A stretch of 63,769 nt of DNA, the filler included, from Alphaproteobacteria bacterium (GTDB taxonomy: Bacteria; Pseudomonadota; Alphaproteobacteria; Caedimonadales; UBA9215), in the NCBI GenBank assembly GCA_024280495.1. It is 6 parts of 6 records of this genome, joined end to end, with 100 filler letters (N's around TTAATTAATTAA, not from the genome) between each part and the next. Parts side by side here need not be neighbours in the genome. Positions count along the whole stretch, not along the records: positions 1 to 23,663 come from JAJRPZ010000046.1; 5 more parts are not named here. One strand, written 5' to 3'. Within the stretch, counting starts at the first letter, position 1, and the number at the start of each line of letters is the position of its first letter. A program made the position numbers. This document shows positions 15,971 to 21,900 of this stretch, in pieces.

Positions 15971-18900
15971 AAACTGCTCCACCCCGCGACAAGGAATACT
16001 CCCTTATACCATCGTTTTTTCTTTATGCAAGAAAAAATTTAATACTCCTCACCACCCAACTTACTTATAATTTTTTTATGGCCTCATACCAAGAACAGAA
16101 TTGGCAATCTAATCATTTTTTTGTTTCCCCCCCTCTCATAACCCTGTGAATAACCAGTATCATAACTCTGTGTGTAAGTTTATCGACCTCCTTATCCACA
16201 TTTCATCCACAGGCTCTCTAAAAATAACCAACAACCACATAACCTGTGAATAACCTGTGAATAAAAAATGCTTTTTCAATGTCATTCCCACTCTTATCTG
16301 TGGATAACCATTTGCACAGCCTGTGAAAAAACGTTATCCTTCCTACATATAACAACAACAATATAATATATATAATAATGTTATTATTAAGAGACCTTTT
16401 AAAATCGAAAAAAAAAGAACAACGTGTTCCCATTTGGTTTATGCGTCAAGCTGGTCGTTTTCTTCCAGAATACCGAGAGCTTCGTTCTTCCTATCCAGAT
16501 TTTTTATCTTTTTGTGCAGATCCAAAAGGCGCCTCTAAAGCTACCTTACAACCGCTGCGTCGTTTTGATCTTGATGCAGCTATTATATTTTCGGATATTT
16601 TAGTGATTCCAAAGGCATTAGGACAAAAGGTAGAATTTGTTAAAGGCGAAGGTCCTAAATTAGAAGCCATCACCTCAGAAGCAGATTTAGCTTCCCTTTC
16701 ACTCCACACTATCCATGAGAATCTTCAGGCAACCCCTGAGGCATTATCTTTAACAAAGCAACACCTCGGTCCTAACCAGACACTTGTTGGCTTCTCAGGG
16801 GCGCCCTGGACCCTTATGTGTTATATGCTAGAGGGAGGAGGCTCTAAAAATTTCGAAAAAGCACGTTTAACCATGGTGCGTCATCCAAACCTTGTGACAA
16901 AAGTGCTTGATTTATTGGTGACGTCAATCACATCTTATTTAATTTCACAGGCTAAGGCTGGGGCTGACGTACTTAAACTTTTTGATTCTTGGGCAGGGAA
17001 TTGTCCACATTTTCTTCAAGATAAATGCTTGAAAAATCCAGTAAAACGCATTTTTGATAACGTTCGATTAGAATGTCCAGATGTACCTTTGATATATTTT
17101 CCGCGGGGTATGGGAACTCAAGGCGTTGTTTTGACGAAAGAAGTGACAGCTGATGCCATGGCCATTGATCAATTTATGAATCCCTCAGCTATTTTAAAAA
17201 CAACCCCCAAAACCCTTGTGCTTCAAGGTGGTATTGACCCTATGGTCGTGCAAGTTGGTGGCGATTTATTGAAACGAGAAGTTTTTAAGTATTTAAATAC
17301 TTTTAAAGATCATCCCTATGTTTTCAATATGGGACACGGCATGATGCCAGAGATGCCTATTCAGCATATAAGTGATTGTATCGATTACGTCCGTCAGTGG
17401 GAACAAAACTCTTTTTCATCTTAAGAGCTTATCCAAACTTTGTAAAAATTGAGACCTGTTTTGTTTGGAAAATGGCTTTGATTGGCTGTTAATTTCACCA
17501 ATTTCTCTAAGGTTAGTGAATAAGTTGCGCATGGCAAGGGCACTCCCAATAGAGTTCTCATCAAATATTTTTCCATTAGAATTAAGGCCCTTAGCCCCTT
17601 TTTCAGTACATCGCTTTGCAAGAGGAACATCAGCAGTAATAAAAATATCATCTGATTCAATTTTTTCTGCAATCCAATCGTCGGCTTTATCGGCACCATC
17701 ACTCACAACAATCAAGAATGCTTTAGCATAGGATAGATTGCGTAAATAAGAATTGGCTACTAAGATAACCTCAAGGTCAAATCGTGCGGCAACCTTAAAA
17801 ATTTCTTCTTTAACGGGACAAGCATCGGCATCGACATAAATTTTTTTCATCTCAAATTCTTTTTTAACGTTGGCTTTTGAGAGAATCTATCATAGGTTTG
17901 AAGAAACGACAAAAATAAGCCTGTTTTTTAGGACAGTTTGATGGAAACATTTAAAGATTTTTTAGCTGATTATTACCTGATTATTAAGTCATTGCACTTG
18001 ATTTCAGTGATATCTTGGATGGCAGGAATGTTGTATTTACCGCGTTTATTTGTTTATCATTGTGACGCGCCCGTCGGATCACTTCAAAGTGAAACCTTTA
18101 AAATTATGGAGCGTCGTCTTTTACGGGGTATTATTAACCCTGCCATGGTCGCCACTTTTGTTTTTGGATTGATGCTTACTGTGACCCCTGGTATTGTTGT
18201 TCAGCCCATGGGGTGGTTCCATGCAAAAATTTTACTTCTTATTTTTATGACTGGTGCCCACGGTGCTATGTCTAGGTGGCGTAAAGATTTTGAAGCCGAT
18301 CGCAATCAAAAAAGTGCTCGATTTTTCCGCATTGCCAATGAGACCCCAACAGTATTAATGATTATAATCGTCTTTTTAGTTGTTTTAAAACCTTTTTAAG
18401 GTTATAAAGAAATTATATTTCCGTTGAAAATGTCTTTTATAGAGATTGTTTGATGGTTTTCTTTTTATTATTTCCCCCTTAAAAATTGATGAAAAACAAT
18501 CTAATTTATTTATAAACCTTCAACAAACGAGAAAACTCTTGTCTATGAACATTCCTGAGCTTAAAGCTAAATCTCCCGAAGATCTTCTAGAAATTGCCAA
18601 AAAATATAAAATTGATAACGCTGGTAATTTACGCAAACAAGATCTTATTTTTAATATTCTTAAGAAAATGATTGCTAAAGATGATGCTATTCATGGCGCA
18701 GGGACCCTTGAAATATTGCAAGATGGTTTTGGCTTCTTACGTTCCGCCGAGGCGAGTTATTTCCCTGGACCAGATGATTTGTATGTATCTCCCAATCAAA
18801 TCAAACGCTTAGGCGTTAGGACAGGCGATTTTATTGAAGGAACCATTCGAGCACCAAAATCAAATGAGCGTTATTTCGCTTTAAATAAAATTACTAAAAT

Positions 18901-21900
18901 AAATAAAGAAGATCCCAAAGAAGCTCGTCGTCGCATTAATTTCGACAACCTTATTCCATTATATCCAGATGAACGTTTCAATTTCGAAATGGAAGACGAT
19001 CCTGATGTTAAGCCCAAAGATAAAGATTTCGCAGGCCGCATTATAGATTTAGTTTCCCCTTTTGGTAAGGGGCAACGTGCCTTGATTACTGCGCCACCGC
19101 GGACGGGTAAAACGGTGATGTTACAAAGTATTGCTAAGAGCCTTGAAAAAAATCATCCAGAAGTAGAGCTTATTGTTCTTTTAATTGATGAACGTCCAGA
19201 AGAAGTAACTGACATGGCTCGTTCTGTTAAAGGAGAAGTTGTGAGCTCGACTTTTGATGAGCCTGCAACCCGACATGTTCAAGTGGCTGAAATGGTCATT
19301 GAAAAAGCAAAACGCCTGGTTGAGCACAAAAAAGATGTCGTTATTCTTCTTGATTCTATTACCCGTTTATCCAGAGCTTATAACACAGTGGTGCCATCAT
19401 CAGGTAAGGTTCTAACAGGCGGTGTTGATGCTAATGCCTTGCAACGTCCTAAACGCTTTTTTGGTGCTGCACGTAATATTGAAAATGGCGGGTCTTTAAC
19501 TATTATAGCAACGGCTTTGGTTGAAACGGGGTCTCGTATGGATGAGGTTATTTTTGAAGAATTTAAGGGAACAGGTAACTCTGAATTAATTTTGGATCGT
19601 AAATTGTCTGACAAACGTATTTATCCTGCCATTGATGTGAATAAATCAGGAACCCGTAAAGAAGAGTTGTTGGTTGGTAAGTCTGATATGCAAAAAGTAT
19701 GGATTTTACGCCGTATTTTGGATCCAATGGGCGCTCAAGATGGTATGGAATTTCTTCTTGAGAAAATTAGGCGTACAAAATCAAATGCTGATTTCTTTGA
19801 ATCCATGAATACAAAAGGGTAGTTTTTATCTATGTCATATACTAATGACTTTAAAAATCAAGGGGCATTAGGTGCCTCTTTTTCTTTTGATAATGTTTCA
19901 CGTGAAACAATTGAGAAATTAAAAATATATGAGGCACTTTTAACAAAGTGGCAAAACTCGATTAATTTAGTTTCTCAAATTACTTTAACTGATACGTGGC
20001 ATCGTCATTTTTTAGATAGTGCTCAACTTTTTTCTTATGTAAGATTTAATGAAAAAATTATTTGTTTGGGGTCTGGTGCTGGATTTCCTGGCGCAGTTTT
20101 AGCTATCTTAGGATGTAAAAATGTAACTCTTGTTGAAAGAGATCGTCGAAAATGTTCCTTTTTAAGGGCTGTTTCACGTGAAACAAAAACGCCTTTTTCA
20201 GTATTTGAAGGTGATGTTCTTAATTTTGAAGGGACTGCATCCGTTGTTGTAAGTCGTGCCATGGCTAGTATTCATGATCTTTTGACTTTATCAAAAAGGT
20301 TTGTAAATCCTGAAACACGTTTTCTCTTTTTAAAAGGAGAAAGGGTTGATCTTGAACTTGAGGCAGCTTCTAAAAACTGGGAGATGACAACTGTGCAATA
20401 TCAGAGTATAACTGATGTTAGAGGATGCATTCTTGATTTAACAGATGTTGCATCAAAAAATGAAACCTCTTTATAGTTTAATTTTATAAAAGGGTTGTTA
20501 TGCACGTTATTTCTGTTGCAAATCAAAAAGGGGGAGTTGGAAAAACCACCACCACCGTTAACGTGGCAACGGCTCTTGCAGCCATTGGCCAACGTGTTTT
20601 ATTAATTGATTTAGATCCTCAGGGAAATGCATCAACGGGCCTTGGTATTTATGATCGCCACGATACTCCAGGCATTTATAATGTTTTGTTGTGCGATGCT
20701 TTTTTTAAAAATGTCACTCATCAAACGGAAATACCTGGTTTGTCCTTAGTTAGTGCTGCTGCAGATCTTGCTGCAATAGAGCATGATGCACTTGAAATGG
20801 AGCGTAAACAATTTCTTTTGCGTGATAGTCTTGAGCAATGCGAAGGGCTCTATGATTATGTTTTGATTGATTGTCCACCAGCCCTTGGACTTTTGACGAT
20901 AAATGCTCTCGTGGCCTCGCACAGTGTTTTGATTCCCCTTCAATGTGAATTTTATGCCCTTGAGGGGTTAGCACAATTAATGTCAACCCTTGAGCGTGTT
21001 CAATCTAACTTAAACCCTTATCTTGACGTTCTTGGTATAGCTCTTACTATGTATGATCCACGAAATGGGCTGAGTGATCTCGTTGTTAAAGATGTTCGAA
21101 AGCATTTTGGAGACCTGGTTTTTAAAACACCTATCCCAAGGAGCGTTCGGGTTTCTGAAGCTCCCTCTTATGGTAAGCCTGTTTTAATATATGATGTTAA
21201 GTCTGCAGGGTCATTGGCTTATATGAATTTAGCATCTGAAATTATGAAAAAACAGGGGATTACCGATGTCATTGCCGCCTAAAAAAGAAATTTTAACAAG
21301 CTCTCTTGAAGATCAACTTGTTCCACGTGAAACAAATTATTTAGAAACAGCCTCCCAGGAAAAAACTACAAGACCTTTGGGTCGTGGGCTTGACAATCTT
21401 CTTGGTTCAAAATTCAGGGGGGCAAAATCAACCAAAGAAGGTCTGTCAATATTGCCTTTAACTAATTTGAAGCCTGGTAAGTATCAACCAAGAACTACCT
21501 TTAGTGGTAAAAATTTAGATGAATTAATTGCATCCATTAAAGAAAATGGTGTGTTACAACCAATCCTTGTTCGTCCCATTAAAGAAAAAACAGGTCCTGA
21601 AACTTATGAGATTATAGCAGGAGAACGCCGTTGGCGCGCCTCAAAGCAGGCGGGGCGCCATACCATTCCCGTTGTTATTCGACATTTAACCAACAAGCAA
21701 GCCCTTGAAAGTGGTTTGATTGAAAATATTCAACGTGATGATTTGAATGTGATAGAAGAAGGAAATGGTTACCAGCGTTTGATGGATGACTTTCAATATA
21801 CCCAAGAGGCTATTTCAAAAATTATTGGTAAAAGTCGGAGTCATATTGCCAATATTTTACGTCTTTTGACATTGAACAATCATGTTAAAAACTTTCTTAT

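Follow-up and report, generated by a model that had tools for sequence, protein, structure and literature searches.

In MnmG-positive Alphaproteobacteria, the site between rho and rsmG holds mnmE and mnmG, often together with qor and a DUF255 gene. What, then, became of the two wobble-uridine enzymes in a Caedimonadales genome (here G000) in which rho and rsmG almost touch? The features of the locus, numbered along the window (the whole 63,769-nucleotide stretch of DNA that was analysed, filler included), are as follows.

16378..17424, + strand: hemE (TIGR01464, 344 bits, over cut-off), upstream part of the conserved block
17938..18399, + strand: hemJ (TIGR00701, 164.6 bits, over cut-off), adjoining rho on its upstream side
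18545..19822, + strand: rho, transcription termination factor (TIGR00767, NCBIfam, 676 bits, over cut-off)
19823..19831, + strand: 9-bp spacer, read from the sequence and tblastn as the deletion junction, with no remnant
19832..20476, + strand: rsmG (gidB), full length with an intact N-terminus (TIGR00138, 117.7 bits, over cut-off)
19894..19909, no strand: 16-bp palindrome within rsmG, which we take to be parS-type (sequence; relatives carry the same palindrome in the same place)
20170..20185, no strand: second palindrome within rsmG, likewise presumed parS-type (sequence)
20500..21282, + strand: parA-family ATPase gene (family-level matches; synteny in relatives)
21266..22330, + strand: parB (TIGR00180, 195 bits, over cut-off)

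The first-pass annotation had described mnmE and mnmG as gone from between rho and rsmG, and this holds: rho ends at 19822 and rsmG begins at 19832. The rho frame is open from a TTG at 18446; the ATG at 18545 (425 aa) better matches homologues of ~418 aa. The hemE-(hemH)-hemJ-rho block is conserved, the same block lying 5' of rho in relatives, and RsmG aligns end to end, at 39–47% identity, with RsmG from three MnmG-positive genomes. Searching by tblastn with relatives' MnmE, MnmG, Qor, and DUF255 proteins gave no match at the rho-rsmG junction, and a search of G000 for relocated or split mnmE or mnmG retrieved only the G-domains of other GTPases. The adjacency reported earlier for this genome and its relatives was seen again in every one of the 7 order loci examined, that of G000 among them, versus 0 of 19 MnmG-positive loci and 0 of 80 named loci (a synteny control from a Rho scan of named genomes, with no Holosporales record among them).

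Repeating the family searches across the order returned the earlier result for MnmG, with none of the 23 order genomes reaching the TIGR00136 cut-off, which 9 of 14 controls did reach; weak matches covering ≤55 model positions occurred in 7 of the 23. MnmE was likewise absent from all 23 (TIGR00450 at E ≤ 1e-35). The loss had been called order-wide. Absence within the order stands, but the description proved too narrow, since neither gene is carried by any of 70 genomes that belong to one clade and represent 29 families (MnmE 0/70, MnmG 0/70). In a class-wide sample, 344 of 401 genomes had an MnmG match and 57 did not, and this sample added 47 genomes to the 23 of the order; these 70 are called lackers below. 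Six genomes with no MnmG match were set aside before counting: G037 has MnmE, the contigs of G048 and G200 end inside the ancestral block, G128 and G303 also have no rho match, and G100 (3.9 Mb, GC 0.63) has neither gene and is only tentatively placed outside the lacker clade. In G390, mnmE is split in two and lies next to yidC, a layout that we take to be of the Beta/Gammaproteobacteria type, and there is also a partial MnmG match; the contig looks foreign, and we read it as contamination rather than as a vertical remnant.

It is very improbable that these absences are artefacts of incomplete bins, or that a host supplies the modification. G000 is 89% complete and has no rpoC match, so that alone it is weak evidence of absence, and the six excluded genomes among the 57 look like gaps or ambiguous cases. 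The claim is carried instead by the intact junction, which is contiguous sequence, and by closed genomes that are also without both genes—G012, G039, G062, G106, G125, G153, G206, G210, G313, and G322 are single contigs. MnmA, moreover, was detected in 67 of the 70 lackers.

The loss probably occurred once, in a common ancestor, judging from tree topology and the shared junction. Among 78 genomes sampled, 34 of 38 lackers formed one clade (SH 0.999) with no MnmG-positive genome inside it, the low-GC, MnmG-positive G336 being placed beside it; a second tree united 20 of 25 lackers (SH-aLRT 100). Of 53 rho loci from lackers, 22, spanning 11 families, show the rho-rsmG junction. Two further loci read rho-parA, and both of these, as well as the G413 locus, retain the parS palindrome directly 3' of rho. 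One clade and a junction common to 11 families thus point to a single ancestral deletion. That small-genome lineages lost the genes separately, several times over, seems unlikely, although some observations lean that way: the junction was not seen in 31 of the 53 loci; four lackers (38-lacker tree) or five (25-lacker tree), all on long branches, fell outside the clade when long outgroups were included; a Rho-only tree gave no resolution at depth; and G100, placed provisionally outside the clade, lacks both genes. With the long outgroups dropped, every long-branch lacker fell inside the clade, whole-clade support then ranging from 0.32 to 1.0. Against independent losses also stand the absence of MnmG-positive genomes from the clade, the absence of any vertical remnant in the 29 families, the same near-zero junction in 11 of them, and the parS palindrome left 3' of rho where rsmG is gone. 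The recovered clade includes the order of the genome studied here and probably corresponds to Holosporales sensu lato (Holosporineae); the tree contained no named member of Holosporales. That GTDB, as the cited report describes it, splits Holosporales into several orders, namely Caedimonadales, Paracaedibacterales, and Holosporales (PMC11909080), is a further point in favor of separate losses.

The explanation that we favor, with a probability of about 0.7, is ancestral deletion without replacement. The rho-to-rsmG block with mnmE and mnmG would have been deleted in the common ancestor of this small-genome alphaproteobacterial clade and, because nothing replaced the enzymes, U34 of tRNA-Lys, tRNA-Glu, and tRNA-Gln would carry only the 2-thio group added by MnmA; U34 of tRNA-Arg(UCU), tRNA-Gly(UCC), and tRNA-Leu(UAA) would have no C5 side chain. 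A U34 without its C5 group reads A-ending codons but reads G-ending codons poorly, so that AAG, GAG, CAG, and AGG would be left to C34 isoacceptors. Loss would have been tolerable because the ancestor still had C34 tRNA genes. Once the enzymes were gone, these genes would have become essential and would have persisted through AT drift and genome reduction down to 0.5 Mb, with four-codon boxes continuing to lose their C34 tRNAs. The persistence of MnmA would follow from the lethality of losing both groups, as seen in Salmonella, in which mnmE mutants hold s2U and are reported to be viable whereas mnmA mnmE double mutants are not (PMC5400242). The mnmA gene noted earlier as kept is indeed present in G000 (C17:12325-13380), as it is in most lackers, and the SGGxDS motif and both cysteine motifs were present in all 12 loci inspected.

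The tRNA gene complement is consistent with this scheme. The tRNA-Glu(CUC) and tRNA-Gln(CUG) genes listed in the first-pass annotation lie at C5:8483-8558 and C58:319-392 of G000, and an independent pattern search gave the same counts across the order (Glu-CUC 22/23, Gln-CUG 23/23, Lys-CUU 18/23). Beyond the order, Glu-CUC was found in 64 of the 70 lackers (G239 not covered). The comparison of lackers with small MnmG-positive genomes used a sample that was not hand-picked and was binned by GC. At locus GC < 0.48, which takes in 36 of 37 lacker marker loci, C34 genes were present for Glu in 33/36 lackers versus 4/32 MnmG-positive genomes, for Gln in 33/36 versus 6/32, for Lys in 35/36 versus 8/32, and for Arg (CCU) in 34/36 versus 16/32; kin are not independent, the contrast counts as one evolutionary event and one data point, and 8 of the 32 MnmG-positive genomes had no match with either pattern. 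Minimal C34 losses on the tree were 3/2/1 over ~12 branch units inside the clade versus 22/21/20 over ~10 outside. Even G039, G206, and G322, at 0.52–0.63 Mb and with a rho-locus GC of 0.26–0.28, have all three C34 tRNAs. Exceptions among lackers are G198, without C34 tRNAs for Glu, Gln, or Lys; G019, G208, G347, and G413, without Glu-CUC; G028, G106 (a single contig), G046, and G406, without Gln-CUG; and the five order genomes without Lys-CUU. Assembly gaps or pattern misses are the likely cause. Neither Leu-CAA nor Leu-UAA was found in the 89%-complete G000 assembly, such long-arm tRNAs being outside the patterns.

Retention of C34 tRNAs might instead be unrelated inheritance, the loss of mnmE and mnmG being real and the tRNAs persisting through slow tRNA gene loss or sufficient G-ending codons. 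There is something to be said for this: the contrast reflects one event only; all three C34 tRNAs coexist with MnmG in 22 of 80 small genomes, the low-GC G336 and G095 included; and G039 retains 40 tRNA genes in 0.52 Mb, Thr-CGU and Leu-CAG among them. We nevertheless consider unrelated inheritance improbable, because C34 tRNAs of family boxes are missing as often from lackers (n = 36) as from MnmG-positive genomes (n = 32) at GC < 0.48—Thr-CGU 13 versus 10, Ala-CGC 6 versus 7, Pro-CGG 7 versus 7, counted without G085, G117, and G397 and with patterns that miss some real genes, such as Thr-CGU of G039. Equal rarity in both groups makes retention specific to the split boxes served by MnmE and MnmG, and the split-box contrast persists in every GC bin below 0.48. 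The lackers have not moved to high GC and to codons ending in G: nearly all their marker loci lie below GC 0.48, as counted above, and G000 uses 20% AAG, 24% GAG, and 22% CAG. Any tendency toward G-ending Lys, Glu, and Gln codons in lackers is weak (t = 2.2; rank test p = 0.09). The association of C34 tRNAs with the loss therefore outlasts GC binning and the family-box control, but it is a single event, and the C34 genes probably came down from the ancestor and were locked in later, not gained as compensation.

A further question is whether another enzyme took over C5 modification of U34. The known candidates were not found: the 22 radical-SAM proteins of five near-complete lackers comprise only MiaB, MtaB, HemW, LipA, HemN, and RlmN and include no Elp3-like protein; the three radical-SAM proteins of G000 are MiaB-, HemW-, and LipA-like; no match of TrmFO strength occurred in the 23 order genomes; and MnmC, CmoA/B, TrhP, and SelU were not found in G000, an incomplete genome. 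The best candidate for an unrelated substitute is an Rsm22/METTL17-family (PF09243) methyltransferase-like gene directly 5' of mnmA, at the tail of an isc-hsc-fdx cluster. It adjoins mnmA in G000 (C17:13466-14494), G008, G009, and G012; of the genomes tested, 5 of 10 lackers carry it, as does 1 of 5 MnmG-positive genomes (G038). G000 also has TrmL, and a substitute would be useful in that a bare U34 in tRNA-Arg(UCU) or tRNA-Leu(UAA) would risk misreading of Ser or Phe codons. The gene was not found, however, in the other five lackers (G018 and the single-contig G039, G206, G125, and G106), which rules it out as an obligate substitute. It lies away from mnmA in G062, G153, and G313, and none of nine mnmA loci from outside the order has it within 1.5 kb; it also occurs among named proteins of Chlamydiales, Verrucomicrobia, and Gammaproteobacteria. 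Its relatives in mitochondria have been described as Fe-S assembly factors of the small subunit, a role that would explain the isc neighborhood. A working substitute would, besides, have let the C34 genes be lost, and they were not. Replacement by an unrelated enzyme is thus improbable. Slightly more so is a new modification on or beside U34 made by an undescribed enzyme, such as this Rsm22/METTL17-like protein co-located with mnmA and Fe-S assembly genes; if true, it would mean wobble chemistry new to bacteria and a function for the bacterial Rsm22 family. Separately, loss of folate one-carbon supply was rejected as the cause of the deletion, as all five lackers tested had matches to Fmt and GlyA (the Fmt match exceeding the cut-off in four).

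One of the known systems that bear comparison, Hodgkinia, is itself an alphaproteobacterium. Like the lackers, Hodgkinia, Sulcia, and Buchnera are reduced and host-associated, but they keep MnmE and MnmG, the opposite solution; mnmA, mnmE, and mnmG are given as the only three tRNA-modification genes of Hodgkinia (PMC6581868). The closest parallel to deletion without replacement is in Actinobacteria, where MnmE and MnmG were lost and 'non-target' C34 tRNAs retained (Diwan and Agashe 2018, PMC6063277), M. tuberculosis being a further case (PMC10531406). In both groups the genes are gone clade-wide, MnmA and C34 isoacceptors are kept, and the proposed order is the same: a full tRNA set, loss by drift, tRNAs locked in (PMC6063277). 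Streptomyces without MnmE and MnmG was reported to have no (c)mnm5 nucleosides by LC-MS (PMC12772374). Actinobacterial genomes are large and GC-rich, with the loss tied to a rise in GC, unlike those of the mostly AT-rich, reduced lacker clade; for AT-rich reduced genomes, strong selection to keep MnmE and MnmG was predicted (PMC6063277). That survey of 1093 genomes found both absent only in Actinobacteria, with Leuconostoc an unexplained loss, and the part cited here mentions no alphaproteobacterial loss. 'Candidatus Spiroplasma holothuricola' is likewise a reduced, AT-rich symbiont without GidA and MnmE that has both U34 and C34 tRNAs for NNR codons, Glu-CUC included; it is a single genome, which is reported to have acquired rare anticodons and to be devoid of every gene for position-34 modification (PMC5861454), while here MnmA, TrmL, TadA, MiaB, and MtaB are still present and 29 families share the state. 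Mycoplasma suis, a reduced parasite, also lost MnmE and MnmG and kept MnmA, but as a single species, described as the sole such loss among the Mollicutes studied (PMC4014445). Our literature search met no report of MnmE/MnmG loss in the present lineage, the pattern of loss with C34 tRNAs retained being known from Actinobacteria and one Spiroplasma.

As genomes shrink, MnmE and MnmG are considered to be among the last translation genes to go. A clade that is old, diverse, and for the most part AT-rich, with genomes as small as 0.5 Mb, appears to have taken another route, combining no C5 modification with a full set of split-box C34 tRNAs, and this corrects the view of clade-wide loss as an actinobacterial trait. 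The gene loss and the rho-rsmG junction also provide a discrete genomic character for a clade in which long branches and compositional bias have kept both unity and position in dispute. Finally, the clade amounts to a natural experiment on whether additional tRNA genes can stand in for a modification pathway, and mnmA and the C34 tRNA genes are predicted to be essential in these bacteria.

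The window carries the gene row hemE, hemJ, rho, rsmG, parA, parB, in which rho and rsmG are direct neighbors, whereas in other Alphaproteobacteria mnmE and mnmG occupy the gap between them. The features at this junction are as follows.

Window 19822: end of rho.
Window 19832: start of rsmG.
Window 19894-19909: palindrome, which we take to be parS-type, inside the rsmG coding sequence.
Window 20170-20185: identical palindrome, also inside the rsmG coding sequence.

RsmG of the window is full length and aligned end to end with RsmG from three MnmG-positive genomes. The first-pass annotation had placed the loss of both genes at this junction, and the comparison bore it out: rho and rsmG were adjacent in none of 80 named rho loci and none of 19 further MnmG-positive loci, and wherever rsmG lay within 6 kb of rho (42 of the 80 named loci) mnmG was also present (42/42). 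Elsewhere in the bacterium's own assembly (GCA_024280495.1) neither gene was found, the MnmE model and relatives' proteins matching GTPase domains only. Because this assembly is incomplete (89%, with no match for rpoC either), absence was tested in relatives. The same palindrome occurs within rsmG of many relatives, and in three genomes that have lost rsmG (G125, G265, G413) it persists just after rho. Upstream, where most relatives have the order hemE-hemH-hemJ-rho, hemH is gone between hemE and hemJ (window 16378-18399) and an opposite-strand yaiI-like gene stands there instead. The window joins contigs C69, C76, C77, C78, C79, and C81 by N runs; many contig ends match short repeats (~100-140 bp) found in the window at 1-141, 41340-41480, and 63559-63769.

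No genome of the order (0/23; the name Caedimonadales is that of the first-pass annotation) had MnmG over the cut-off. In an even sample of 401 genomes of the class, 344 had an MnmG match (including unpublished G058 and G243, on which nothing else is based) and 57 did not, four of these belonging to the order. Six non-matching genomes were set aside before counting: G037 has MnmE, the contigs of G048 and G200 stop within the ancestral block, G128 and G303 have no rho match as well, and the sixth is G100. The resulting 47 class genomes plus the 23 of the order make 70 lacking genomes in 29 families, 10 of them single-contig assemblies. MnmE was found in none of the 70 and MnmA in 67, so that the proposed order-wide absence with retained MnmA holds, and more widely than first seen. 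A split mnmE beside yidC in G390, from a lacking family (contig C49; L313, L314), was rejected as a native gene; its contig looks foreign to the bin and is probable contamination. G100 (3.9 Mb, GC-rich, outside the clade described below) has no MnmE or MnmG match, other genes after rho, and the C34 tRNAs for Glu, Gln, and Lys; either its assembly has a gap or the genes were lost a second time independently.

The loss is real and clean, and was probably single and ancient. In 22 of 53 lacking loci, spanning 11 families, rsmG directly follows rho, with a gap of −8 to 23 bp in 21 and 180 bp in one; the remaining loci are rearranged. A 119-genome tree of RpoB, RpoC, and neighboring translation proteins, from which the 40% of variable sites with the strongest compositional bias had been stripped, placed 34 of 38 lacking genomes in a single clade (SH 0.999) containing none of 78 MnmG-positive genomes; coverage of larger MnmG-positive genomes was sparse (15), and a carrier may yet be nested in the clade. 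The other four (G039, G206, G125, G265) were long branches outside it. IQ-TREE (LG+G4, 48 rows) grouped 20 of 25 lacking genomes (SH-aLRT 100), drawing out G106 too; when long outgroups were dropped, all outlying lacking genomes fell inside the clade in three treatments (support 0.32 to 1.0). Long-branch artefacts are documented for the Holosporales group in the available text of PMC6447387. The studied assembly was left out of the multi-protein trees, and the Rho tree groups it with G018, within the order. The clade is probably Holosporales sensu lato; according to the accessible part of PMC11909080, GTDB divides Holosporales into Holosporales, Paracaedibacterales, and Caedimonadales. As to rpoC itself, its match lies in a 2712-aa open frame in G206 (C1:114152, L222) and a 2761-aa frame in G039 (C1:252882, L203), which suggests a fused rpoB-rpoC gene; in G018 (C4:491157-495157, L193) it lies in two pieces in different frames, through sequencing error or a real frameshift.

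Retention of Glu-CUC and Gln-CUG, also claimed at first pass, was confirmed: the studied genome has 28 tRNA genes, including Glu-CUC, Gln-CUG, and Arg-CCU, and a pattern search that prints the anticodon found Glu-CUC in 22/23, Gln-CUG in 23/23, and Lys-CUU in 18/23 genomes of the order. At least one of these three occurs in 69 of the 70 lacking genomes, and all three in three closed ones of 0.52-0.63 Mb. Among 80 MnmG-positive genomes of ≤2.1 Mb, with matches classed as real or false by eye, 42 had none of the three, 22 had all, and 28 had Glu-CUC. At GC <0.48, among genomes with marker loci, lacking genomes versus carriers gave 33/36 versus 4/32 for Glu, 33/36 versus 6/32 for Gln, 35/36 versus 8/32 for Lys, and 34/36 versus 16/32 for Arg-CCU, with eight of the 32 carriers giving zero matches from either pattern, and the patterns overlooking some real genes. 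The four-codon-box C34 tRNAs used as controls, counted with three carriers left out, showed no difference between the groups: Thr-CGU was present in 13 lacking genomes and 10 carriers, Ala-CGC in 6 and 7, and Pro-CGG in 7 and 7. For Gly-CCC the counts were 11 and 4. Retention is thus specific to split-box C34 tRNAs, and the contrast was present in each GC bin. On the 119-genome tree, poorly resolved outside the clade, a rough minimal-loss count put the C34 loss rate ~tenfold lower inside. Some genomes do not fit: two low-GC carriers, G336 and G095, likewise hold the full trio, no member of it occurs in G198, and one is missing from several lacking genomes. Dependence of the lacking genomes on C34 tRNAs has good comparative support, the clade counting as one evolutionary sample. 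The studied genome's Glu-CUC (C5:8483-8558) has an anticodon arm (U32, altered stem) unlike that typical of its genus, where Glu-CUC is otherwise near-invariant. G039 (0.52 Mb) has 40 tRNA matches (L315-L344), among them two with rare anticodons, Ile(UAU) and Arg(UCG); the former suggests a putative TilS loss.

There was no sign of a substitute. The order had no match of TrmFO strength, and five near-complete lacking genomes encode 22 radical-SAM proteins, all of them MiaB, MtaB, HemW, LipA, HemN, or RlmN. The studied assembly, 89% complete, has TrmL and TadA and gave no match for MnmC, CmoA/B, TrhP, or SelU. Fmt and GlyA were retained in all five lacking genomes checked, which rules out loss of one-carbon supply as the cause. 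An Rsm22/METTL17-family gene abuts mnmA in the studied genome, G012, G008, and G009, and in the first two it closes the iscS-iscU-hscB-hscA-fdx cluster.

C17:13466-14494 (L380) of the studied genome, and loci L379, L351, and L354: Rsm22/METTL17-family gene, directly upstream of mnmA.

This gene is patchy (missing in 5/10 lacking genomes, present in 1/5 carriers) and widespread in other phyla, and was therefore rejected as a clade-wide substitute.

The xm5 group mainly aids U34 in reading G-ending codons. Wobble tRNAs of the lacking genomes would carry s2U only, and the C34 genes would have been inherited first and locked in once MnmE and MnmG were lost. The predicted drift to G-ending Lys, Glu, and Gln codons was weak (coefficient 0.28, t=2.2; rank test p=0.09), the coefficient in family boxes being −0.06. 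In the portions available of the respective papers, mutation of mnmE in Salmonella leaves s2U in place and impairs growth, and mutation of mnmA in addition is lethal (PMC5400242); (c)mnm5 nucleosides are undetectable in Streptomyces without MnmEG (PMC12772374); and M. tuberculosis, with no apparent C5 enzymes, has both Glu-UUC and Glu-CUC (PMC10531406).

The accessible text of other reports describes the same pattern for one Spiroplasma member (PMC5861454) and M. suis (PMC4014445); in Hodgkinia, by contrast, mnmA, mnmE, and mnmG are the only tRNA-modification genes (PMC6581868). Diwan and Agashe, in the part available, describe the pattern of loss for Actinobacteria, with Leuconostoc an unexplained second loss (PMC6063277). 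Literature listings pairing mnmE/mnmG with Holosporales or endosymbionts showed no report of the loss; 'mnm' and 'tRNA' are absent from the available text of a Holosporales review (PMC11909080), 'mnm' from that of a Holospora genome paper (PMC5911502), and gidA and trmE appear only as table entries in PMC4302308. Most subscription papers lay outside this coverage, so an earlier report may exist. In its available text, PMC6063277 predicts that AT-rich clades should retain MnmE/MnmG; the loss stands out for going against that prediction in reduced genomes that are AT-rich, and for marking a disputed clade.
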